DNA from: a virus | Lineage: Duplodnaviria; Heunggongvirae; Uroviricota; Caudoviricetes | Length of the DNA: 43,922 bases | Virus record (IMG/VR): IMGVR_UViG_3300045988_002593 | Location: 1-43,922 of that record | Reading direction: 5' to 3' (one strand) | Shown: one piece after another, positions 1,694 to 41,292 of the stretch | How the letters are laid out: the number at the start of each line of letters is the position of its first letter | How positions within the stretch are numbered: the first letter of the stretch is position 1 | Position numbers and translations under genes: made by a program | The notes under the pieces: generated by a model | Told to the model about the DNA's origin: nothing | Seen by the model: only the letters and a program-made list of their open reading frames with translations | Databases searched by the model: none

Positions 1694-1926
1694 TTACCAG
1701 CATTCCGAACCTGATTAAAGAATTCGGCACGATGGCCGAGACATGCCGACAAACCGGCATCAACGAAATGACGATTGCCAAGTACAGTAAAGACGTTGAT
1801 TGCGAGCGCCACGTAATTTATAACAACCGTCTGATGACGCACGTTAAGACAAGCCCGGTGTTATTCACGCGCCGGGGTATCACTAAAACCGAGCAACGTA
1901 TCGCACGAGGGGAGAGCAGGGAATGA
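1690..1926 (+). CDS. Hypothetical early protein
   Basis: ORF track, start moved to the ATG at 1690. Confidence 0.45.
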   Translation: MITSIPNLIKEFGTMAETCRQTGINEMTIAKYSKDVDCERHVIYNNRLMTHVKTSPVLFTRRGITKTEQRIARGESRE

Positions 1927-1998
1927 TTGACGTCTGAATAGCCTGCTAGTATAGTTAAAACGCGTCATACACTAATTTAACGAACAGAGAGAGCAAAT

Positions 1999-2229
1999 AT
2001 GGATACTAAATTTGAAGTAATCGATGAAAACACAGTTACGGTAACTGAAGAAGGTAGCCACTACATCCTTATTGATAAGGTAAATGGTAGTTGGAGAGCA
2101 AAAGCGTACTTTAACGGTGGCGCTACAGTTGTATCAAAAGGCACGCATACGTCTTTTACTTCCGCATACGATAACCTTAAAGATGCGGTTAAATCCGCGG
2201 CCAGTCATATGGCATCAGCAGAGCTGTAA
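1999..2229 (+). CDS. Hypothetical protein
   Basis: ORF with RBS GAGAGAG upstream; followed by an intrinsic terminator. Confidence 0.55.
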   Translation: MDTKFEVIDENTVTVTEEGSHYILIDKVNGSWRAKAYFNGGATVVSKGTHTSFTSAYDNLKDAVKSAASHMASAEL

Positions 2230-2244
2230 AATACCCGCTCAACA

Positions 2245-2267
2245 AGCCCTCTACGGAGGGCTTTTCT
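2245..2267 (+). terminator. Rho-independent terminator ending the early operon
   Basis: GCCCTC/GAGGGC stem with TACG loop followed by TTTTCT. Confidence 0.55.
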
Positions 2268-2296
2268 GTACATCCTGCCCAATCCCCTTATATAAT
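2267..2296 (+). promoter_or_regulatory. Candidate promoter for the packaging/head operon
   Basis: Perfect -10 TATAAT at 2291-2296 with a weak -35 (TGTACA, 18-bp spacer); followed by a 7-bp-stem hairpin at 2303-2321. Confidence 0.35.
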
Positions 2297-2361
2297 CCCT
2301 TTAGACGCGTAGGGCGCGTCTGGTGCGCTCTGATGGTCAGACGCATATGCAAGGGGATTCT

Positions 2362-2871
2362 ATGAAGCTGAAACTTAAGCAGCCATCGCCAGAGGTGGTG
2401 CAAGCTGCACATGAAGAAGCTGTTAGCGCAAACCGTCGCCGTAAACGGCCGCGCGGCAAACAGAGCCTTTATCAATCATCTCGTAATTCCGCCGCGTTGT
2501 GGGACCCGGACTATTGCGACGCGTTAATCGAGTTCTTTGACCGCACGTCATGGGAGCTTGTACCCACGTCTAAGGGTGACGAACGTCCGTTGATTCAGGA
2601 TAAACCGCCATCACTGGCTCGCTTCGCCTTACACATCGGTGTCACTATCCCGATTATTAAGCTTTGGCTGCGTGAGATTCCCGCATTTGCAGAAGCCTGG
2701 GAGACAGCACAGGCGCTGGAAGAGGCATACTTCACTGAAACGGGGGCCGCGGGCATCTCTGCTACGTTTGCTGCCGCGAAACTGGGCCTGAATAAAACAG
2801 TTGTCGCCGAAGAAGTACGCGACGAGCCAATCAGCGAAGTAACAATTAAGGTGGTGTCCGGTGAATGTTAA
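2362..2871 (+). CDS. Putative terminase small subunit
   Basis: Directly upstream of and overlapping the large terminase gene; basic N-terminus; size typical of TerS; assigned by position only. Confidence 0.5.
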   Translation: MKLKLKQPSPEVVQAAHEEAVSANRRRKRPRGKQSLYQSSRNSAALWDPDYCDALIEFFDRTSWELVPTSKGDERPLIQDKPPSLARFALHIGVTIPIIKLWLREIPAFAEAWETAQALEEAYFTETGAAGISATFAAAKLGLNKTVVAEEVRDEPISEVTIKVVSGEC

Positions 2872-4132
2872 TATCACGGCAACGGAGCCGCAAGGCGCGT
2901 TTCTCGGTATGCATTGCAAGTTTCCGGCATTCGTAGCTGGCTTCGGTACGGGTAAATCCGAAGTTATGTGCAACTCTGCACTACTCGACAGCATGGAAGG
3001 TGGTAGCGATTCTATCATCGCCATGTATGAGCCGACTTATGACCTGGTGCGCCTCATCCTTGCACCGCGTATGGAAGAAAAGCTCACCGACTGGGGTATC
3101 CGGTACAAATACAACAAGTCTGACAACATAATCTATACGTCTTCCGGACAATTTGGGGATTTTGTTCTGCGTACACTTGATAATCCAGCACGAATCGTTG
3201 GCTACGAATCGTTTCGTGCGAAAATCGACGAGTTGGACACCCTTAACATGGAGCACGCCGAGCACGCGTGGAACAAAGTCATCGCCCGTAACCGCCAGTT
3301 GCCGCGGACATATAAACCTATTACACCGAAACCTGCTAATACCGTTTCCGTGTTCACTACCCCGGAAGGATTCCGTTTCGTACATGACCGCTGGGTAGTC
3401 AAAAAGAATCCAGGCTACGAGATGATTCAGGCGTCCACCCTGTCTAACCCGTTCCTGCCAGAAGATTATGTGCAGTCGTTACGCGACACATACCCAGGTC
3501 AGTTGATTGACGCCTACATCAACGGCGAGTTCGTCAACCTGACGGCGGGGACTGTCTATTACGCCTATGACCGCAGGAAAAACAGCAGCCGCGAAACAAT
3601 AAAACCAGGCGAGACTCTGTATATCGGGCAGGACTTTAACGTAGGCCACATGGCTAGTACAGTTTACGTGCAACGTGGCAAAGTCTGGCATGCAGTCGCC
3701 GAGTTGGTGGATATGTTCGATACGCCCGATGTGGTGAGAGCCGTAACAGAGCGCTGGAAAAGTAAGGGCCACTATATCGTTATGTACCCCGACGCAAGCG
3801 GTAAAAACCGTAAAAGTAACAACGCCAGCACATCTGATATTGCCCAGTTACAGCAGGCCGGCTTCGAAGTGCGCGCTAAATCGACAAACCCACCGGTTAA
3901 AGACCGCGTAGCGGCGATGAATAAGGCGCTTGAATCTGGTATGGTCATGATTAATGAACAGGCTTGCCCTGTTACCGCACGATGCCTGGAGCAACAGGCT
4001 TACGACAAGAACGGCGAACCGGATAAATCAGGCGGTGTGGACCACCAGAATGATGGAACCACATACCCTATCGCGTATGAAATGCCGATTCGCAAACCAG
4101 TTATTAACGTCCCGGTGACTTTCGCACTTTAA
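2861..4132 (+). CDS. Terminase large subunit
   Basis: Walker A-like GFGTGKS near the N-terminus, 423 aa, directly upstream of the portal gene. Confidence 0.85.
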   Translation: MNVNITATEPQGAFLGMHCKFPAFVAGFGTGKSEVMCNSALLDSMEGGSDSIIAMYEPTYDLVRLILAPRMEEKLTDWGIRYKYNKSDNIIYTSSGQFGDFVLRTLDNPARIVGYESFRAKIDELDTLNMEHAEHAWNKVIARNRQLPRTYKPITPKPANTVSVFTTPEGFRFVHDRWVVKKNPGYEMIQASTLSNPFLPEDYVQSLRDTYPGQLIDAYINGEFVNLTAGTVYYAYDRRKNSSRETIKPGETLYIGQDFNVGHMASTVYVQRGKVWHAVAELVDMFDTPDVVRAVTERWKSKGHYIVMYPDASGKNRKSNNASTSDIAQLQQAGFEVRAKSTNPPVKDRVAAMNKALESGMVMINEQACPVTARCLEQQAYDKNGEPDKSGGVDHQNDGTTYPIAYEMPIRKPVINVPVTFAL

Positions 4133-27277: not shown

Positions 27278-27789
27278 CTGGTAAATTTCCTCGCAAGATA
27301 CGTTATTTCTTCTTCACAAAGTTCATCAAGGTCGTTAGATACAAATCCTCTGGTGAATGTTTTGCTGAACTTTAATCCAGCTTTATCATTGTCGCCAGCG
27401 CATACCCAGTCATACGGCAAAAGTGACATTTGCTGCCGTAGGTCTGTTGATATATTTGACCCCAGTGCGCTTACAGCATTGAACCCGCAATTCATCAAGG
27501 CTACGGCTTTGAATATGCTTTCGGTAACAAATACCACCCCGCTTTCCGGCAAATACTCAAGCCCCCATAAACACGGCCTTGTTGTTCTGGTAAAGTACCG
27601 CGCGTCTTTAGGGTTTTTACAGTTCTTTTCGGCATGTGGTTTGTAATGCTGGTATCCGCGAAGCCTACCGTCAAACCCCCACAGGTAAAACGTAGCTACT
27701 CCAGGGGCTAAGACTACCTGGAGACGGTCAGCGTCAAACCCACGCGCCAGCAGATGAGCTTTAAGTAGAAACTCTTCGAAATCCATCAT
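27274..27789 (-). CDS. Toprim-domain protein (primase-like catalytic core)
   Basis: Motifs VFVTESIFKAVAL and CAGDNDKAG resemble the Toprim E...DxD signature; start overlaps the helicase stop. Confidence 0.5.
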   Translation of the reverse strand: MMDFEEFLLKAHLLARGFDADRLQVVLAPGVATFYLWGFDGRLRGYQHYKPHAEKNCKNPKDARYFTRTTRPCLWGLEYLPESGVVFVTESIFKAVALMNCGFNAVSALGSNISTDLRQQMSLLPYDWVCAGDNDKAGLKFSKTFTRGFVSNDLDELCEEEITYLARKFTR

Positions 27790-29216
27790 TTCTTACCTCG
27801 TCTCTTCATGTAATTAAGCAACTCTTCCTGTACCGATTTCTTCTCGTCGGTACGCGCGGCGACAACCTCGTCCAGAGTGTCTTTAGCAACGATGTGATAA
27901 AGGAACACCGGGCGCTCGTGACCCGCCTGTTTCTGGCGGACTGGGCCTATGCGCTCAACAACCTGCAAATAGTGCTCAAGGTTCCAGCCTTGCGAGATGA
28001 ACGCCAGATGATGACCCCCGTCCTGTAAATTCAAACCATGCCCGGCTGACGCAGGATGCACGCATAAAATCTCGATTTCCCCACGGTTCCACGCTTCCAT
28101 CTGCTTGTTCCCCCTAGCGCCTTTGGCGAACGCCTGTGCCTGTGGGAATCGCTTAAGGATACGCTCCAGTTCGTGTTTAAACTGATAGGCTACAAGCAGC
28201 GGCGCGCCCTGTAACTCCTCGACAATTGACTCAAGCGCATCCAGTTTCGTGTCGTGCACTTTCTCCCAGTCTTTGGTCGCTTCGCCGTCTGGTCCTGACA
28301 CATACACAGCACCGGATGCAATTTGCAAGCACTTCGACGTCTTCGCCGCGGCGTTAGCCGCTTCAACTTCCCCGCTCTCCAGTTCCGCAAATAACTTCTC
28401 CTCCATATCAATGTACGCCTGACGCGCTTTCTTCGGCAGGTCGATTTCGACCGGTACAATAATCGGCGCTTCACAACCGAACCATTCGGCGGGGTCTATG
28501 GTCAGGCTGATGTCTTTCATCTTCTGATGAATCTCATTATCTGCACCCGGGCGTGCGTGATATTCACGTGCCATAGCCGATTTGCCTTTCTGTACCGAGT
28601 TAAACCAGCGGTCAGTGAACGCTGTGTACGAAGAACCGAGGCGCTCGCCAGCGTCGATAAACCAGTTCTGCCCCCACAGGTCTTTGAGGCCGTTTGGTGA
28701 TGGTGTGCCCGTAAGGTTGATGAAACGCTTAACCTTGCCGAACGCAACCTTGCTAAGCGCCTTCGCCCTCTTGCTACCACCTGAACGGCTGCGGAACGAT
28801 TTAAGCTTCGTGCTTTCATCGGCAACGATAACGGTAAAAGGCCAGTCGTCTTTGCCGTAGTAGTCAATCAGCCACTCGATAACTTCGTAGTTAGTGCACA
28901 CCACGTTAGCATCAGACTCCAGCGCTGCGATGCGGCGCTTTTCTGAACCGGTTGCATCTACGACGCGCAGACAAGGGAATTTCCATTTCTCTTGTTCTGC
29001 AGGCCATGTACCGGACGCAACGCGCAACGGGGCGAGGATTAACACGCGGTCCTCTTCTGTAAGCTGCCCGTTGCGGAACAGCCGGTTAAGCACCCACATA
29101 GTGGAGGAGGTTTTACCCCCTCCCATGCCGCACCAGATATTACAGCGCGGGTGTTGCAGCATGAACGAGGTCATGAGCTTCTGGTACTCTCGACGGATAA
29201 ATTTAGACATACTCAA
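27786..29216 (-). CDS. SNF2-like superfamily 2 helicase
   Basis: Walker A GMGGGKTS, motif II DEST, motif III LTGTP. Confidence 0.8.
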   Translation of the reverse strand: MSMSKFIRREYQKLMTSFMLQHPRCNIWCGMGGGKTSSTMWVLNRLFRNGQLTEEDRVLILAPLRVASGTWPAEQEKWKFPCLRVVDATGSEKRRIAALESDANVVCTNYEVIEWLIDYYGKDDWPFTVIVADESTKLKSFRSRSGGSKRAKALSKVAFGKVKRFINLTGTPSPNGLKDLWGQNWFIDAGERLGSSYTAFTDRWFNSVQKGKSAMAREYHARPGADNEIHQKMKDISLTIDPAEWFGCEAPIIVPVEIDLPKKARQAYIDMEEKLFAELESGEVEAANAAAKTSKCLQIASGAVYVSGPDGEATKDWEKVHDTKLDALESIVEELQGAPLLVAYQFKHELERILKRFPQAQAFAKGARGNKQMEAWNRGEIEILCVHPASAGHGLNLQDGGHHLAFISQGWNLEHYLQVVERIGPVRQKQAGHERPVFLYHIVAKDTLDEVVAARTDEKKSVQEELLNYMKRRGKK

Positions 29217-29407
29217 CCCTTAACGTAGAGCACCAGCTCTTTACGCCCGAACGCCGTAACGTTACCAGTTACATCTTCGATAACCAGTTTACCGTTCGAC
29301 TCGACGAACACCGTATCAACGGCAACAGGGCGACGTGTCTTAACGTTGAAAATCATGTCGCCAGGTACGATGTCACGTGCTGGTTTGCGGTCATATTCGT
29401 GTTTCAT
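29213..29407 (-). CDS. Hypothetical protein
   Basis: ORF track; stop overlaps the helicase start; own promoter upstream. Confidence 0.5.
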   Translation of the reverse strand: MKHEYDRKPARDIVPGDMIFNVKTRRPVAVDTVFVESNGKLVIEDVTGNVTAFGRKELVLYVKG

Positions 29408-29437
29408 TTCTCAATTCCTTATATTGTTGGTGTAAGG

Positions 29438-29722
29438 CTAACTATAATAGTTCGCTATTAGGTCGTCAACCTGTTTAAACGAACCGACGACAAAAACATT
29501 TGCACCGCGTTTACGCATCCGCTCATGCTCACGTAACTGGTGTGGGTCTGGCTTCGTATTTTCGTCTTTCTTAACCTCGACGAACCAGACGATGCCGCCG
29601 GGGAGAATTACCAGCAGGTCAGGAGCACCGGAGCGCCCCTCGTAGGAAAGTTTACGAACGAGGCCACCAATGGCCTCGAATCGCTCTTTTGCGTATTTCT
29701 GAATCTTGCCTTCCGGGGTCAT
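29438..29722 (-). CDS. VRR-NUC domain nuclease
   Basis: Motif GAPDLLVIL...WFVEVKK matches the PD-(D/E)XK VRR-NUC signature. Confidence 0.65.
   Translation of the reverse strand: MTPEGKIQKYAKERFEAIGGLVRKLSYEGRSGAPDLLVILPGGIVWFVEVKKDENTKPDPHQLREHERMRKRGANVFVVGSFKQVDDLIANYYS
29441..29469 (-). promoter_or_regulatory. Promoter, TTGACR-17-TATAGT class
   Basis: Minus-strand -35 TTGACG (29464-29469), 17-bp spacer, -10 TATAGT (29441-29446); lies within the 3' end of the VRR-NUC gene. Confidence 0.5.
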
Positions 29723-29871
29723 GAGCGCAGAACCCAGGTTATAAACGCTCCTCCGAGAACGGCAACGCCAACAAACTTAAAGAACAGGCCGTAACAGAAC
29801 ATCGCAGCTATTCCCGCGCCGAGTAACAGTGCGAGCATGGTTACTATGGTCCAGAATACTAACATTGTCAT
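29719..29871 (-). CDS. Hypothetical membrane peptide (50 aa)
   Basis: Hydrophobic ORF; ATGA overlaps at both ends with neighbouring genes. Confidence 0.4.
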   Translation of the reverse strand: MTMLVFWTIVTMLALLLGAGIAAMFCYGLFFKFVGVAVLGGAFITWVLRS

Positions 29872-29957
29872 AATACGCACCCCTCACGTTTCGTATGCTC
29901 AATCCCGCAGCGCGGACAGATTCGGCAGTCTTCTTCGTATAACCAGTAAATTTTCAT
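29868..29957 (-). CDS. Hypothetical zinc-ribbon peptide (29 aa)
   Basis: CRICPRCG...EGC cysteine pattern; ATGA overlaps at both ends. Confidence 0.35.
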   Translation of the reverse strand: MKIYWLYEEDCRICPRCGIEHTKREGCVL

Positions 29958-30085
29958 TCCAGCACCCACAAATAAATTGCTACTAGCATACCCAATACGG
30001 CGACCATCATGCCGTATTGACCCTCGTGACAGTAGACACCAGCGGCGAATCCCGCCAGCACCGCGATACTTAGTTTACTTGGCAT
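29954..30085 (-). CDS. Hypothetical membrane peptide (43 aa)
   Basis: Hydrophobic ORF whose ATG overlaps the last codons of the polymerase gene; stop overlaps the next ATG. Confidence 0.35.
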   Translation of the reverse strand: MPSKLSIAVLAGFAAGVYCHEGQYGMMVAVLGMLVAIYLWVLE

Positions 30086-32246
30086 AACGCTTCATCTCCG
30101 CGCCTTCCGCTACAAGAGGGAAGCCCTCTGCCCACTCTGGCAACGCACACATTAATTTCTCCAGTTCAGCTACGTTGTATTCCGGCGTATCTGGAGTTTC
30201 ACATACCAGTTCATCGTGTACATGAAGTACAATAGGGTAGCCGTTTGCTTCTACGTTCAGCAGTGCATTAGCCAGCAAATCACGGCACAGCGCCTGCGTA
30301 CAGTTTTCCACGAGTTTACCGGAATATGTGTACTGGAACCCCCACTGTCGGGTTAGCTGATTTTCGCCCTGGTACTTGATGCGCACGTTAGTAGACACCT
30401 TCCCGTCTTCGTCTGTCTCTTTTGATACGCTTAACCCGACGCCTGGATAAGACATAACACGACCCGACGGCAGCGTCATACGCAACCACCAACCAGCGAC
30501 TTTGTTGCCGTTGTTATCTGTCTCTACGTTACGCGAAAACTTAACCCCGCGCGGCCCTGCGGTGAACTCTTTACCCGGATTGCGGATAGCCGCCATAGCT
30601 GCATCTTCAATATCGCGCCAGAATTGGACTATTGCTGGGTTAGCTTCCCGGTACATGCGCTTTAAAGCGTCACAGGTGCGCCAAACTTTCTTATCAAGAA
30701 TATATGATGGTCGGTCATCTTTTTCACCAGGACGTGGCGGTCGCTTGGCTTCCTGAATACGCGCCCATTCATATCCTCGTGCGGTAGCGGCCCAGATATG
30801 GTCAGGGAAAGTCCCGTCTAAAGTACGGGCCATATCGTTCAAATCAAGCCCTAAGTTTTTAGCAAACGTGACGAAAGCCCCTACACCCCCCGCGTAACCC
30901 AGTCCGAGAACCATTGCTTTGGCTATTTGTCTTTGGTCCTTTGTTACGTCGTCATAACTAACGTTGAACACGGTTGATGCGAGTTTCTTATACACATCAA
31001 CCCCGTTTACAAATACTTCTATTAAATCGTCTTCGCCAGCCAGCCACGCCAAACCACGGCCTTCAACGTTAGAGTAATCGGCTACGACAAACTTATGCCC
31101 TGCTTCCGGGATAATACAGCTACGAACCGTCGACGCCGTTAGCTTGGCTACGTCGAAACGGCGATGCGCACGACCCTTAAGTAGCGCTGAAATGCCCTTA
31201 TCCAGTTCATCATCGTGATAGTACCCGCGCGCCAGGTTCTGTGGTTGGAAGCCTTTACCTGCGAACCGTAACGTACGCTTGGCCCCACCGTACTGGATGC
31301 AACCACGGCGGCGGTCGTCCGACGAGCGACCCAACAGCAGCGGGTTATATTTCGTTGACGCAGTGGACGCGGCCCCGAGGCGCATTTCTATAATTGTGCG
31401 GGCGTCGTCGGGTAAATCCTCATCCGCCAGCAGGTCGTTAAGCGTTGACTTCTGCGCGTTGTGGATACGGTGCGCTGGCGCAAGTTCACGCAGAATCGGC
31501 AGGAAGTCCTTACCAGTAAGAGAGCCACCGTATTTTCGTTGGGCTTCTTCCTGTAACTGCGCCTTGTGCTTCTCCACGGCTTCAATCGCGGCTTCTGCCA
31601 GTGCAACGTCAACCTTAAACCCGCGGTCATTTATTAACTGGTCAAGTTCCAGTACACGGTCTTCGAACTCGGAGTTACCCCAACGTGGCAGCTTATGGAA
31701 GACTTCACGCATCGCGGTGATGTCGCTCACGGCGTACTTGATGAACAGCGCCCACTCGTCCGGGTGTGTTTCTGCGGTATAGCGTCTGATTTTGTAGTTC
31801 TTCGGTGTCGGTTTAGAGAAACGCTGAATCAGCGCCTTGCCGCGTTTATCTTTCGCGTTGTCGGCGGATACGCCCAACACTTCGCACAAGGCATCCAGTG
31901 AACCTGGCAGCGCGTGACGAAACGCCCAAATCATCGTATCAATGGTGTTGCTTACGGGAATATCAAAACCCCAGCAGTGCTTCATGATGAGCCTATCGAA
32001 CATTGAGCCGTTGTGCCACACCATCTTGGTGCGGCTGTTTGGCTTAACCAGGCGGCGCAAGGCGCGGTGCAAATCTCCCGGCATGTCGCTGCCGTCGGTG
32101 CAATCCCATACCTGTACAGGCTCGTCATCAAAGGCATATGTGCAGATTAGCACTTCGGTTGACGGGTGTTCGGCGTAAGCGTAGGAGCCGACTTTCTTTA
32201 AATCGGCTTCGGAGAATGTTTCAAAGTCTAAGAACAGGTAACTCAT
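30075..32246 (-). CDS. DNA polymerase, family A, with 3'-5' exonuclease domain
   Basis: Exo I motif LFLDFETFS; polymerase motif A DYSNVEGR, motif B K...YG (KAMVLGLGYAGG), motif C HVHDE. Confidence 0.9.
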   Translation of the reverse strand: MSYLFLDFETFSEADLKKVGSYAYAEHPSTEVLICTYAFDDEPVQVWDCTDGSDMPGDLHRALRRLVKPNSRTKMVWHNGSMFDRLIMKHCWGFDIPVSNTIDTMIWAFRHALPGSLDALCEVLGVSADNAKDKRGKALIQRFSKPTPKNYKIRRYTAETHPDEWALFIKYAVSDITAMREVFHKLPRWGNSEFEDRVLELDQLINDRGFKVDVALAEAAIEAVEKHKAQLQEEAQRKYGGSLTGKDFLPILRELAPAHRIHNAQKSTLNDLLADEDLPDDARTIIEMRLGAASTASTKYNPLLLGRSSDDRRRGCIQYGGAKRTLRFAGKGFQPQNLARGYYHDDELDKGISALLKGRAHRRFDVAKLTASTVRSCIIPEAGHKFVVADYSNVEGRGLAWLAGEDDLIEVFVNGVDVYKKLASTVFNVSYDDVTKDQRQIAKAMVLGLGYAGGVGAFVTFAKNLGLDLNDMARTLDGTFPDHIWAATARGYEWARIQEAKRPPRPGEKDDRPSYILDKKVWRTCDALKRMYREANPAIVQFWRDIEDAAMAAIRNPGKEFTAGPRGVKFSRNVETDNNGNKVAGWWLRMTLPSGRVMSYPGVGLSVSKETDEDGKVSTNVRIKYQGENQLTRQWGFQYTYSGKLVENCTQALCRDLLANALLNVEANGYPIVLHVHDELVCETPDTPEYNVAELEKLMCALPEWAEGFPLVAEGAEMKRYAK

Positions 32247-32305: not shown

Positions 32306-32935
32306 TTAACCACGGCGACGACGTTCGCGGCGTGGTGCTTCATCCTCTTCGTCGTCTTCCAGGTCATTGACGCTCGCGGCGACTTTAGAACCGCCGAACG
32401 CTTTACCTTCTCCAACGTACTTAATTGCCAACAGGTTAACACCGAGAACTTTGTATTTCTGACTGAACCAGATTTCTACGCTTACGTTAGCAACGCAGCC
32501 ACTGTAAACCTGTTCACCTTCAATCTGTTCGCCGTCTACATTGAAGTCCTGCTCTACCTGAGTCTCACCTTTTTTAGAGGTTACAATCAGCGGCTGCTTC
32601 TGTGCCTTCGCTTTGAAGTAGAAGCCTTCCGGGAAGTCTTCAAACGGATTGTCACGCTCGGCAATGTCTTTAATCGCACATTTATCCATGTGCTTACCTT
32701 CGCCGTAGTTGGACTTCATCCACTTCTCGGCGGCGGCTGCACCTAACGCTTCTTCAACTACAGCGTAAACGGTGTCGTAGAGCGCGTCGATTTGCGCGTG
32801 GTCGGACGGCAGGATAATAGTCGCGCTGTACTGACCTTTAGTGATTGAACCATCATCATTTTCACGGTCTTTTTCGCGTTCGAATACGTTAACCCAAGCA
32901 GTGTTTACTTTACGCAGATTTAATTTCAGTCCCAT
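32306..32935 (-). CDS. Putative ssDNA-binding / annealing protein with acidic C-terminal tail
   Basis: Acidic tail DLEDDEEDE; sits in the recombination cluster near the Cas4-like nuclease; function inferred weakly. Confidence 0.35.
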   Translation of the reverse strand: MGLKLNLRKVNTAWVNVFEREKDRENDDGSITKGQYSATIILPSDHAQIDALYDTVYAVVEEALGAAAAEKWMKSNYGEGKHMDKCAIKDIAERDNPFEDFPEGFYFKAKAQKQPLIVTSKKGETQVEQDFNVDGEQIEGEQVYSGCVANVSVEIWFSQKYKVLGVNLLAIKYVGEGKAFGGSKVAASVNDLEDDEEDEAPRRERRRRG

Positions 32936-32990: not shown

Positions 32991-33019
32991 ACTATAATAG
33001 CTAACTATTCAGGTGTCAA
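32991..33019 (-). promoter_or_regulatory. Promoter, TTGACA-17-TATAGT class
   Basis: Minus-strand -35 TTGACA (33014-33019), spacer with GAATAGT, -10 TATAGT (32991-32996); leader contains hairpin CCGGGAGCTGCCCGG (32964-32978). Confidence 0.55.
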
Positions 33020-40178: not shown

Positions 40179-40360
40179 TGCAAGAATTAATTTACGACGT
40201 ATATGTAGGAGGAAAATTTAGCTATTCAACGAGAAGCAGAGGTGAGGCGTTTAACCATTGCTGTGCATTAACGAAGTTAGGCTTCAACGCGGAATTTAAA
40301 TCCAGAACGGCGTCGAATCATGATGCTCGTGCCGACGACTCTGAGGGAGGTTGCCGTTAA
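40178..40360 (+). CDS. Hypothetical early protein
   Basis: ATG overlaps the upstream stop (TGATG). Confidence 0.45.
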   Translation: MQELIYDVYVGGKFSYSTRSRGEAFNHCCALTKLGFNAEFKSRTASNHDARADDSEGGCR

Positions 40361-40515
40361 TGAAAATTCGAATAACTGACCGCAGGCTTATAGATTTCGG
40401 TATCTCGGTAGGTGATGTTTTTCTGGCGTTCAGCAGCAACCATTATGGTTTTATGATTGAGTACAAAGGGTCATTATTGTTCGTGTATCGGGATGAATGC
40501 GAGGTTCTGGTATGA
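40360..40515 (+). CDS. Hypothetical small protein (51 aa)
   Basis: TAATG and ATGA overlaps with neighbours; below the ORF-track cut-off. Confidence 0.35.
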   Translation: MKIRITDRRLIDFGISVGDVFLAFSSNHYGFMIEYKGSLLFVYRDECEVLV

Positions 40516-40685
40516 GAGAAGCATTCGAACGGTGGGCCATCGTCGAGGGTCTGCCGGTTAATAAGGGTTCGAAGAAAGAGTACCTGAACGTTAAGACGCG
40601 TCTCGCGTGGCGGGCGTGGAAAGCTGGTGTGCAAGCAAGGGCGGGTATAACAGGTGGTGTAACAGGTCAAAAGGTTACTAATTGA
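40512..40685 (+). CDS. Hypothetical early protein
   Basis: ORF track, start at ATG 40512; followed by two hairpins (about 40697-40760). Confidence 0.45.
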   Translation: MREAFERWAIVEGLPVNKGSKKEYLNVKTRLAWRAWKAGVQARAGITGGVTGQKVTN

Positions 40686-40821
40686 CTGAGTGACTTACGC
40701 TGCTACACAGCAGCGTACAACTTTAGCTTAGTGTCGTCAAAAGGCGACACTTGCACGAAACGCAACAATCGAAGCGACTATTGCAGGAGATGCAACAATA
40801 ACAGACACCAATAAAATTTAC

Positions 40822-40850
40822 TTGCACACTGGGATAGAATAGTCTACTAT
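40822..40850 (+). promoter_or_regulatory. Promoter, TTGCAC-17-TACTATTCA class
   Basis: -35 TTGCAC, 17-bp spacer with TAGAAT, -10 TACTAT, 30 nt upstream of the ATG at 40881 (RBS GAGGAGAGG). Confidence 0.5.
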
Positions 40851-40880
40851 TCATTTACACAAACGAGAGGAGAGGCAGAG

Positions 40881-41030
40881 ATGGTTACTTTGATGATTAT
40901 GGAGTTTGAAAACAGCGCAGCAACTTACCGTGAGATGACTATGGCGCAGGCATATCACCTGGCCTCAAACGGCAACTTCTACAAGGCTCAAATCATCAAT
41001 GAGTTCGGGGTAATTGACTATGAATTTTAG
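40881..41030 (+). CDS. Hypothetical small protein (49 aa)
   Basis: Strong RBS; directly downstream of a promoter; stop overlaps the next gene start. Confidence 0.4.
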   Translation: MVTLMIMEFENSAATYREMTMAQAYHLASNGNFYKAQIINEFGVIDYEF

Positions 41031-41292
41031 CAGCTACACCGTGACTGTTGATTTTGAGGGGCTGGAGTTGCCCCTCCCTAACAACTACAGGTATATAACT
41101 CGCGACCGTTTCGGGTTTATTCAGGGGTGGAGGAACAAACCGACAGACACTGAGTTCGGGATGTCGGGTGGAGAAGAGTTGCCGATCACGTTCGGGCATC
41201 AGAGCAGCAATGAAGAGCTTAAAACGGTGATTCGTAAGTATCGCCGCCGCGGTAACACCGGGCTTATAGCAATAACAGGTGCTGTTGAATAA
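41020..41292 (+). CDS. Hypothetical protein
   Basis: ORF track, start at ATG 41020. Confidence 0.5.
   Translation: MNFSSYTVTVDFEGLELPLPNNYRYITRDRFGFIQGWRNKPTDTEFGMSGGEELPITFGHQSSNEELKTVIRKYRRRGNTGLIAITGAVE

Follow-up and report, generated by a model that had tools for sequence, protein, structure and literature searches.

The locus considered here raises the question of whether three very short reading frames, packed between a DNA polymerase gene and a nuclease gene, are genuine genes, and what such genes might do. The window, the whole stretch of 43,922 nucleotides that was analysed, is a Kagunavirus/Jerseyvirus-type (Guernseyvirinae) siphophage genome of the Jersey/K1G-like kind. The relevant features are as follows.

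P1, 30085..29954, minus strand: ORF of 43 aa, MPSKLSIAVLAGFAAGVYCHEGQYGMMVAVLGMLVAIYLWVLE (ORF list)
P2, 29957..29868, minus strand: ORF of 29 aa, MKIYWLYEEDCRICPRCGIEHTKREGCVL (ORF list)
P3, 29871..29719, minus strand: ORF of 50 aa, MTMLVFWTIVTMLALLLGAGIAAMFCYGLFFKFVGVAVLGGAFITWVLRS (ORF list)
Family A DNA polymerase gene, 30075..32246, minus strand: 723 aa; Pfam DNA_pol_A at E=8e-23, annotated as DNA polymerase in relatives
VRR-NUC / Holliday-junction-resolvase-like nuclease gene, 29438..29722, minus strand: 94 aa; phrog_93 and phrog_5702
Candidate sigma-70-like promoter, 32991..33019, minus strand: TTGACA-17-TATAGT, 11/12 in a consensus scan

P1, P2 and P3 exactly tile the 367-nt interval 30085..29719 between the polymerase and VRR-NUC genes, and the statement in the initial annotation that minus-strand ORFs of 43, 29 and 50 codons fill it was confirmed from the sequence and the ORF list. 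The nuclease gene itself matched the Pfam family VRR_NUC weakly (E=0.0016, under the curated cutoff). The candidate promoter precedes the gene at 32935, which in the relative Bas70 bears the annotation of an ssDNA-binding/annealing protein; judged only by its match to the consensus, it probably starts the transcript that carries the polymerase, P1, P2, P3 and VRR-NUC, and between it and VRR-NUC no convincing terminator was found. The best explanation of the locus overall, and in our judgement a likely one, is that three small genes, each genuine and evolving independently of the others, occupy a recombination-prone accessory position in the replication operon, between polA and VRR-NUC.

Coding status and distribution of the three genes

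P1, P2 and P3 are real protein-coding genes under purifying selection at the amino-acid level. No internal stop codon was present in any of the distinct sequences from relatives (P1, n=40; P2, n=45; P3, n=22). The in-frame dN/dS values, which are pooled pairwise estimates obtained without a tree and from ungapped matches only, were 0.21 for P1, 0.125 for P2 and 0.19 for P3, and the neighbouring polymerase C-terminus and VRR-NUC gave 0.09 and 0.13, so that the constraint on the small proteins is comparable in strength to that on the flanking enzymes. Shifted frames gave values of 0.8-2.5 and contained stops, and the substitutions in P1, P2 and P3 were mostly in third positions. Frames, lengths, start codons and the ATGA or GTGA junctions were kept in dozens of relatives with 80-90% nucleotide identity. 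The proposal that these are real micro-protein genes was borne out when conservation of frames and overlaps was checked in relatives: both were kept, with dN/dS far below 1 only in frame.

The three genes are not new. Each is a deposited hypothetical protein belonging to a PHROG family without assigned function. The profile matches were full-length for P1 (phrog_10404, E=1.4e-30, 1-43 of 43) and for P3 (phrog_14925, E=4.9e-33, 1-50 of 50) and covered profile positions 5-32 of 36 for P2 (phrog_38225, E=2.7e-21). The exact sequences had already been deposited as WP_262931484.1 (P1), QEA09437.1/YP_010749636.1 (P2) and WP_262931486.1 (P3), and the same three CDS are annotated in Bas70 as Bas70_0041, Bas70_0040 and Bas70_0039. 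Members of these PHROG families in Kagunavirus and Jerseyvirus phages (Bas70_0041/0040/0039, Jersey_41, CPT_Sciku_038) have the same length, order and position between the polymerase and VRR-NUC genes; the window's proteins do not differ from them and represent one more member. The idea that gene callers usually miss all three held only for the 29-aa P2, whose annotation was absent from 11 of the 26 annotated records sampled, and did not hold for P1 and P3, which are deposited. No gene call of P2 was found in Logan, ENA or JGI, and no paper addressing P1, P2 or P3 was found in the literature on Guernseyvirinae/Jerseyvirinae and small phage genes.

Among phage records, P2 was found in 445, P1 in 224 (about 50%) and P3 in 121 (about 27%), and VRR-NUC, counted at 80% identity or more, in 444. 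P2 is a core gene, universal in the subfamily. P1 and P3 are optional: each of these cassettes can give way to, or stand beside, other small ORFs or HNH homing endonucleases. The slot is mosaic in composition, with 22 architectures in 52 loci, three HNH endonucleases included. Homologues of P1, P2 and P3 among 5.8 G proteins were all at least 76% identical, had the same length and lay on contigs of at most 45 kb, and the identity of the micro-ORFs was not structured by polymerase clade (P1: 0.911 vs 0.910). Rare variants comprised five P1-to-P2 fusion proteins (68-72 aa), one P1 readthrough product and two P2-P3 fusions, and in one locus P1 started with ACG. Such fused and frameshifted variants mean that P1 and P3 are clearly dispensable, and some of their copies may be decaying. 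No copy was present in complete E. coli genomes, so there was no sign of a prophage state.

Two readings would deny that these are three separate genes. The spacer might be non-coding and its open frames due to chance, or selection might act on a DNA or RNA element such as a promoter, an origin or a structured RNA and not on protein; the ORFs are indeed very short, P2 is barely long enough for gene callers to report and goes unannotated in many records, and there is a weak promoter-like match (9/12) at 29871-29843. However, the lack of stops in all 40, 45 and 22 sequences, a dN/dS of 0.13-0.21 confined to the proper frame, the dominance of third-position variation and the conserved start codons and overlaps all argue for coding, and an Rfam search over 29000-30600 gave no match at E up to 1. 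This reading is effectively refuted, and we give it hardly any weight. The three frames could also derive from a single protein of some 120 aa, ancestral or real, whose gene two frameshifts have broken or whose synthesis requires serial -1 ribosomal frameshifting, given that each junction is a -1 frame step and that rare database proteins join P1 with P2 or P2 with P3. Yet a conserved ATG or GTG starts every one of the ORFs, they occur separately (P2 alone, P1 with P2, P2 with P3) and no slippery heptamer was found at the junctions. In the fusion proteins the frame shifts at differing positions, and they form clusters of one to three members from metagenome assemblies, which resembles indels or sequencing errors. 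A single split protein is accordingly as extremely improbable as a non-coding spacer, and three separate genes remain the preferred reading.

Overlapping junctions and possible translational coupling

ATGA overlaps join P1 to P2 (29957..29954), P2 to P3 (29871..29868) and P3 to VRR-NUC (29722..29719). The junction of the polymerase gene with P1 is instead an 11-nt out-of-frame overlap, ATGCCAAGTAA (30085..30075), formed by the last 11 nt of the polymerase gene; the claim of an ATGA at every start was thus correct for three junctions and wrong for this one. Among the interval architectures there are TATTATGA junctions. In the 52 loci, ATGA was kept at P1/P2 in 39, at P2/P3 in 16, at P3/VRR in 22, at P2/O64 in 8 and at O64/P3 in 4, with GTGA occasionally replacing it in relatives, and the 4-nt start/stop overlaps were preserved whichever cassette adjoined. 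It had also been argued that overlap of this precision is improbable by chance and hence telling. That argument is not supported, the overlaps being ordinary packing: in Bas70 a 4-nt overlap is found at 20 of the 74 same-strand junctions (27%), three in succession occur at two places, and 24 of 83 CDS are no longer than 60 aa. No other type of junction is as common among these phages as the 4-nt overlap, and therefore an ATGA chain is by itself not unusual.

The Shine-Dalgarno (SD) sites bear on how the chain may be translated. Two were prominent.

GGAG SD for P1, 30096..30099, minus strand: within the last polymerase codons, spacer of about 9-10 nt, -6.6 kcal/mol
GAGGGG SD, 29880..29885, minus strand: within the P2 codons R-E-G, -8.3 kcal/mol

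For reference, the median energy was -5.8 at long ORFs and -2.8 at random positions. The P1 duplex had a median of -6.6 kcal/mol over 45 relatives. The SD of P2 itself is weak (-3.7 in 52 of 52 loci), and behind P3, both in the window and in 23 relatives with this order, VRR-NUC has no usable SD (-3.1); where it directly follows P2, its value is -8.3. P2 and VRR-NUC after P3 are accordingly SD-less downstream genes, and P3 (-8.3) and P1 (-6.6) are not. In relatives the GAGGGG site precedes P3, a 64-aa ORF, 25- or 23-aa peptides, a 165-aa HNH gene or VRR-NUC; together with the ATGA at 29871..29868 it is the predicted initiation region of whichever gene follows P2.

The alternation of strong and weak SD sites suggests two coupled pairs, P1→P2 and P3→VRR-NUC, and co-translation by coupling is plausible from the arrangement of these sites. 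Ribosomes would load at the GGAG in the end of the polymerase gene and translate P1, whose termination at the TGA of the ATGA would lead to reinitiation on P2. The last codons of P2 (CGT GAG GGG TGC ... ATGA) would supply a strong SD and a start, here for P3, and termination of P3 would feed the SD-less start of VRR-NUC. In genomes lacking P3, the same site within P2 would drive VRR-NUC directly, which suggests that P2 doubles as a portable initiation region for inserted cassettes. With a strong P3 site inside P2, de novo initiation at the P2/P3 junction may occur as well.

Translationally coupled overlapping gene pairs are known from the E. coli trp operon. Tight coupling at ATGA overlaps by termination-reinitiation has been demonstrated experimentally in bacteria (PMC6728339, PMC10666635). 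Like the known pairs (E. coli trp; PMC6728339, PMC10666635), those of the window are co-directional, overlap by 4 nt and have an SD-less downstream gene (P2, and VRR-NUC after P3). Unlike the surveyed pairs, those here are only predicted to be coupled, and the polymerase/P1 overlap is 11 nt.

If coupling occurs, the peptides themselves might be functionless, their translation mattering only in passing ribosomes down the operon and setting the level of VRR-NUC. Consistent with this, neither P2 nor VRR-NUC after P3 has an SD at its start, which in both cases overlaps the stop codon before it, a coupled junction stands before VRR-NUC in every architecture, and P1 and P3 are dispensable. However, the amino-acid constraint resembles that on the flanking enzymes, and hardly any variation is seen in the polar loop of P1 or in the Cys/His residues of P2. 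Moreover, VRR-NUC can directly follow the SD within P2 and use it, so P3 is unnecessary as a relay. We therefore consider mere relay ORFs very unlikely, and genes whose products are themselves selected remain the favoured explanation.

Properties of the peptides and their possible roles

P2 is a charged 29-aa protein with the pattern C11-x2-C14-x2-C17-x3-H21-x5-C27, which includes a CPRCG knuckle. Over the 52 loci, C14 and C27 were kept in 52, C17 in 51, H21 in 50 and C11 in 46, with R or F replacing C11 in the remaining 6. The conserved set is therefore CCHC, and P2 is probably a soluble mini-protein that binds one Zn through C14, C17, H21 and C27, although zinc binding is only putative given that C11 is not invariant. 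The initial annotation had seen a zinc-ribbon of the type CxxC...C; the Cys pattern is present, but a single CPxCG knuckle is not the classical two-knuckle ribbon, C11 varies and neither Pfam nor NCBIfam gave a match. The zf-CCHC knuckle (C-x2-C-x4-H-x4-C) was considered and rejected, the spacing in P2 being C-x2-C-x3-H-x5-C and Pfam giving no match at E up to 0.1. In its ligand set and its span of 14 residues from C14 to C27, and in these only, P2 resembles the CCHC knuckle (retroviral C-x2-C-x4-H-x4-C), and it shares the CPxCG knuckle type with ribosomal protein S27ae, RpoM and Nop10.

Structure and profile searches added little. An AF2 model placed CPRCG at a beta-hairpin with low confidence (pLDDT 64). 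Foldseek with this model found nothing below E=5 in the PDB, and a PDB sequence search nothing below E=0.1; the weak matches from both, insignificant with E above 0.1, were all zinc knuckles. The P2 profile HMM, run against 1.84 G representatives, returned only its own family and two repeat proteins that share an xCPxCGxE knuckle with P2 (37-42 bits), and a natural 41-aa extension of P2 found close relatives only in the protein database. The P2 cluster also contained P0203 (487 aa), which is unrelated and was set aside as a clustering artefact.

P1 and P3 each have a hydrophobic segment of bilayer length and few charges, as expected of small integral membrane peptides. In P1 (GRAVY 1.23, highest 15-residue window mean 2.6) the polar loop CHEGQYG, nearly invariant in relatives, separates a hydrophobic stretch at residues 5-19 from a second one at 26-42. 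P3 (GRAVY 1.79, every 15-residue window mean at least 1.34) has about 47 consecutive hydrophobic residues, a length that suffices for a two-helix hairpin, and it is probably a helical hairpin. Both peptides are thus predicted to be small inner-membrane hairpins. Their description as hydrophobic single-pass peptides was right as to hydrophobicity but doubtful as to a single pass. Pfam gave for P1 only sub-threshold matches to the hairpin families EMC6 and SPC12 and none for P3, and NCBIfam had no meaningful match for P1, P2 or P3. Paralogy of P1 and P3, considered for their shared AG[FI]AA and VAVLG motifs, was unsupported (hhalign probability 0.3%, shuffle test p=0.016), and derivation of the T25 and T23 peptides from P3 was marginal (p~0.008) and confined to the shared 5' end. 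A holin or other lysis-cassette membrane protein was rejected, as in Bas70 two holin genes and the endolysin gene occupy 40179-41218, well away from the operon, and no PHROG lysis-category match was found for P1, P2 or P3.

No functional homologue was found for any of the three, and the roles proposed are therefore analogies. P2 may, speculatively, be a conserved helper of the replication/recombination module, and P1 and P3, as is usual for small phage membrane proteins, dispensable host-interaction factors acting, for example, in superinfection exclusion or in modulation of host membrane proteins. Many phage exclusion proteins are small membrane proteins (T4 Imm, T5 Llp, HK97 gp15). In this direction, P1 and P3, together with the 23-25-aa substitutes, could be interchangeable membrane effectors that serve to exclude superinfecting phages, take over the host or counter its defences. 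They are predicted to be small hydrophobic hairpins, their presence varies between near-identical phages and they are exchanged across polymerase clades; other short TM peptides substitute at the same junction, and unrelated small TM ORFs fill the same slot in distant phages. Nevertheless, the reading is one of analogy, with no homology to any characterised protein in PHROG, Pfam or NCBIfam, and hypothetical genes of phages in general often turn out to be small TM ORFs, so that their recurrence in the slot may equal the base rate. We regard effectors as possible but doubtful.

Somewhat less probable still is the suggestion that P2 is a zinc-knuckle partner subunit of the 94-aa VRR-NUC or of the polymerase, giving DNA binding or assembly. 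P2 and VRR-NUC co-occur 1:1 (445 vs 444 records), P2 directly overlaps the VRR-NUC start in the simplest architecture, and distant polymerase/VRR-NUC modules carry unrelated Cys-rich mini-ORFs in the slot, that of L066 being a canonical CCHC knuckle. Overlapping coupled pairs also often encode subunits of one complex (PMC10666635). On the other hand, no fusion of P2 to VRR-NUC or the polymerase was seen, homologues are lacking outside the subfamily, and P2 and VRR-NUC can lie apart, with as much as about 700 nt of other genes between them. A combined scheme is held with equally low confidence: P2 would be a zinc-binding subunit working with VRR-NUC or the polymerase, its 3' end would be the docking site at which P3, the 23-25-aa peptides or HNH genes are swapped, and P1 and P3 would be cargo that sets the specificity of superinfection exclusion or counter-defence, the locus being a slot dedicated to accessory genes and ready for their translation.

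A known block of this kind is found in T7, where the small accessory genes 5.3, 5.5, 5.7 and 5.9 lie between the DNA polymerase (gene 5) and the exonuclease (gene 6), gp5.5 acting on H-NS and gp5.9 on RecBCD. The likeness is one of small non-essential ORFs between polymerase and nuclease in a replication operon. There is, however, no sequence similarity, and in contrast to the soluble T7 proteins, two of the three here are predicted membrane peptides.

The result is mainly one of annotation tidying, in that three micro-genes are real and selected in a common group of coliphages and Salmonella phages that are therapeutic candidates. About 40% of the GenBank records with annotation omit the core gene P2, as do apparently all metagenome gene callers. 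The design of coupled pairs with and without an SD is testable with reporters, and the natural near-isogenic series differing only in P1, P3 or HNH content (e.g. the window vs L003) could reveal the role of small phage membrane peptides. If it were true that P2 is a subunit of the minimal VRR-NUC resolvase, this would be a modest but real gain for phage recombination biology.

Gene layout and coding evidence in the polymerase/VRR-NUC interval

Minus-strand reading and ORF listing placed three micro-ORFs, P1, P2 and P3, between the genes for the DNA polymerase (pol) and the VRR-NUC nuclease, where together they tile the interval 30085..29719.

32246..30075, minus strand: family A DNA polymerase, 723 aa (Pfam DNA_pol_A match), the upstream neighbour
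30085..29954, minus strand: P1, 43 aa
29957..29868, minus strand: P2, 29 aa
29871..29719, minus strand: P3, 50 aa
29722..29438, minus strand: VRR-NUC/Holliday-junction-resolvase-like nuclease, 94 aa (phrog_93 and phrog_5702; weak Pfam VRR_NUC match)

The initial annotation had proposed a chain of three ATGA-coupled ORFs reaching from the polymerase end to the VRR-NUC start. The ORFs, the tiling and the ATGA shared by the P1/P2, P2/P3 and P3/VRR-NUC junctions were all recovered, but the polymerase/P1 junction is an 11-nt overlap, ATGCCAAGTAA, with no ATGA. The megablast matches of the region, with ~80-91% identity, were Escherichia/Salmonella siphophages belonging to the Kagunavirus/Jerseyvirus group (Guernseyvirinae). 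The annotated relative Bas70 has 4-nt overlaps at 20 of its 74 same-strand junctions and two runs of three such overlaps, and 24 of its 83 CDS are of 60 aa or less. ATGA-coupled ORF pairs number 29 in the window, compared with 7.6 ± 2.5 after dinucleotide shuffling. Dense ATGA packing and numerous micro-genes are therefore the norm for this phage group, and the precise overlap, which had been taken as something special, is not peculiar to the interval.

Homologous segments were extracted from 79 IMG/VR loci, fetched via the VRR-NUC protein, and from two GenBank loci. No internal stop was found in 40 (P1), 45 (P2) and 22 (P3) distinct nucleotide sequences. In the proposed frames dN/dS was 0.21 for P1, 0.125 for P2 and 0.19 for P3 (pooled Nei-Gojobori; pairwise estimates from ungapped matches, not tree-based), and the two shifted frames gave 0.8-2.5 with stops in essentially every sequence. 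Since the flanking values at the same loci were 0.09 for the polymerase C-terminus and 0.13 for VRR-NUC, amino-acid constraint on the micro-ORFs is about as strong as on the neighbouring enzymes. No Rfam family matched the region.

It is this constraint that makes it unlikely that P1, P2 and P3 are pure relay ORFs. Derivation of the three from one split or frameshifted gene is also unlikely, since each ORF is found without the others and keeps its own start. Fused forms do occur among database proteins: the metagenomic P1-to-P2 fusions P0001-P0005 and P0180 carry single-base frameshifts at differing positions, P0116 results from readthrough of the P1 stop codon, and in P0082 and P0102 P2 is joined to P3. 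In one locus (L042, IMG/VR UViG_641201315_000001) P1 starts with ACG instead of ATG and is otherwise intact. Either these copies are decaying or the variants stem from errors in sequencing.

Predicted products, distribution and annotation

The strong hydrophobicity noticed earlier for two of the peptides was borne out, P1 having a GRAVY of 1.23 and P3 of 1.79. Their description as single-pass did not hold so well: in P1 two hydrophobic stretches flank a nearly invariant loop, Y18-C-H-E-G-Q-Y24, and P3 is hydrophobic over residues 2-48 with conserved G18, G20, C26, Y27 and G35, so that both are better described as putative small membrane hairpins. P2 is charged (5 K/R, 5 D/E). Of 52 loci, 50-52 retain each of its C14, C17, H21 and C27, and C11 is replaced in 6; P2 is thus probably a one-zinc mini-protein. 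An AF2 model places CPRCG at a beta-hairpin, with a pLDDT of only 64. PDB fold and sequence searches with P2 gave no significant match, and all the non-significant ones were zinc knuckles. Tested as a classical zinc ribbon, as it had been called, and as a canonical zf-CCHC knuckle, P2 failed on both counts.

In a tblastn search of 50,697 phage records, P2 was matched in 445, P1 in 224 and P3 in 121, and the carriers were nearly all Salmonella or Escherichia phages of the Guernseyvirinae. VRR-NUC at 80% identity or more was found in 444 records; therefore P2 is a core gene, and P1 (~50%) and P3 (~27%) are accessory. Among 5.8 G proteins only relatives were found, at 76% identity or more, of equal length and on contigs of at most 45 kb. 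An exhaustive HMM search of 1.84 G representatives with a P2 profile returned nothing beyond its own family and two unrelated repeat proteins, which share the CPxCG knuckle with it. All three appear from these searches to be ORFans confined to the lineage.

Exact copies are already public as hypothetical proteins: WP_262931484.1 (P1), QEA09437.1 and YP_010749636.1 (P2), and WP_262931486.1 (P3). Bas70_0041, 0040 and 0039 are the same three CDS, likewise annotated as hypothetical, and all three match over their full length PHROG families of function not assigned. The claim that gene callers miss these ORFs applies mainly to P2, whose 90 nt place it at the customary length cut-off: in spread samples of the tblastn matches, 11 of 26 annotated records had no CDS at P2, compared with 7 of 29 for P1 and 5 of 27 for P3. 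Metagenome-pipeline calls number in the hundreds in the P1 and P3 clusters, but the P2 cluster holds NCBI entries only, and in the record of phage Jersey a CDS is annotated for P1 and none for P2. The 487-aa protein P0203, listed in the 90%-identity cluster of P2, has no visible similarity to it, and its membership appears to be a clustering artefact of the collection.

Expression signals and the interval as a mosaic slot

Duplex energies with the anti-Shine-Dalgarno (SD) sequence were -6.6 kcal/mol for P1 (GGAG within the end of pol), -3.7 for P2, -8.3 for P3 (GAGGGG within the P2 codons R-E-G) and -3.1 for VRR-NUC, the reference medians being -5.8 for long ORFs and -2.8 for random positions. 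The strong/weak alternation was seen in every relative, and P2 was never better than -3.7 in 52 loci. On the simplest reading of this alternation, P1→P2 and P3→VRR-NUC would each be a pair led by an SD, with the downstream gene translated via termination-reinitiation at ATGA, which couples such bacterial gene pairs tightly (PMC6728339, PMC10666635). For VRR-NUC the median was -3.1 after P3 (23 loci) versus -8.3 directly after P2 (19 loci). The sequence CGTGAGGGGTGCGTATTATGA at the P2 end would serve as an initiation region common to whichever gene comes next; by locus this is P3, a 64-aa ORF, short peptides, a 165-aa HNH gene or VRR-NUC. A sigma-70-like promoter match lies at 33019-32991 (minus strand, 11 of 12 consensus positions) with no convincing terminator downstream of it, which is consistent with one transcript, these being consensus matches only.

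Downstream of the interval, the following features were also observed:

29441-29469, minus strand: sigma-70-like match TTGACG-17-TATAGT (10/12), within the VRR-NUC 3' end
29213-29407, minus strand: 64-aa ORF, phrog_4879, with a 4-nt overlap (…TTGA, TTG start) with the helicase
27786-29216, minus strand: SNF2-type helicase, adjoining the phrog_4879 ORF

The record of Jersey annotates a promoter at the position equivalent to 29441-29469, and this match may give the phrog_4879 ORF and the helicase a separate transcript. In Bas70 and Jersey this ORF and the helicase are separated by a gene for a DNA methyltransferase, which the window lacks.

Among 52 Guernseyvirinae loci the pol/VRR-NUC interval has 22 architectures. 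The type of the window, pol-P1-P2-P3-VRR, occurs in 13 loci and pol-P1-P2-VRR in eight, where P2 is lengthened to 32 aa with a 14-nt overlap with VRR. In others P3 is swapped for a 64-aa ORF or for 23-25-aa hydrophobic peptides, the 64-aa ORF is present together with P3, or P1 is lost except for its first seven codons, which are joined in frame to P2. This optional 64-aa cassette, O64 (MSNKPFSKKLAALVDMPEWEF…; L007, L016, L019, L024, L029, L036, L047, L048), is soluble, contains Cys (…CAGCTHKG…), and has no NCBIfam match. Its insertion point is exactly the ATGA junction of P2, and it terminates in either ATGA or GTGA. The 4-nt overlap is maintained irrespective of the neighbouring cassettes (P1/P2 in 39 loci, P2/P3 in 16, P3/VRR in 22, P2/O64 in 8, O64/P3 in 4), in a few loci as GTGA variants. 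Where O64 stands ahead of P3 (L016), TATTATGACAATG is repeated at the O64/P3 junction, and this microhomology could mediate precise cassette gain and loss. All P1/P3 combinations were found in both polymerase C-terminal clades (at least 90% and 70-81% identity), and micro-ORF nucleotide identity was equal within and between the clades (P1, 0.911 versus 0.910), so that a recombination boundary lies at the 3' end of the polymerase gene.

Also found in the interval are three different genes for HNH endonucleases, of 231 aa and 171 aa (the latter in L028 and L056) directly 3' of pol and of 165 aa (L042, L045) after P2; in phage Jersey (L002/L049) an N-terminal part of the 165-aa gene is left as the 43-aa ORF Jersey_40. 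In the closest relative (L003, IMG/VR UViG_3300045988_004574), whose P1, P2, P3 and VRR-NUC proteins are identical to those of the window, the 231-aa HNH ORF lies at 1875-3001 between the pol stop and P1, equivalent to ~30075-30085 of the window. Its last codons (…DAK*) and its 11-nt overlap with P1, ATGCCAAGTAA, match the pol 3'-end junction. The pair shows a classic homing-endonuclease presence/absence polymorphism, and the interval is an insertion hotspot for such genes.

Possible functions and significance

No homologue of P1, P2 or P3 with a known role and no paper on these ORFs was found. Because near-identical phages exchange P1 and P3, and other short TM peptides can take their place, our best guess is that both act as dispensable effectors in the membrane (exclusion or host modulation). 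For P2, which is conserved and occurs 1:1 with the minimal VRR-NUC, the best guess is an auxiliary role in the replication/recombination module, possibly in partnership with that nuclease. In distant pol/VRR-NUC modules, where the polymerase C-terminus is 35-50% identical, the corresponding slot holds small TM ORFs or Cys-rich mini-ORFs that are unrelated to P1-P3. Within L059-L081, small TM ORFs were seen upstream of VRR-NUC in L059, L060, L062, L073 and L080, and Cys-rich mini-ORFs in L066 (a canonical CCHC knuckle, CTYCGQEGHRASRC), L068, L070, L071 and L081.

P1-P3 are conserved, uncharacterised micro-genes that had been deposited already and whose packing is ordinary for the phage group. 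What is added here is that P2 is an under-annotated core gene, that the pairing of starts with and without an SD predicts coupling, and that the pol/VRR-NUC interval is a hotspot for cassettes and homing endonucleases.
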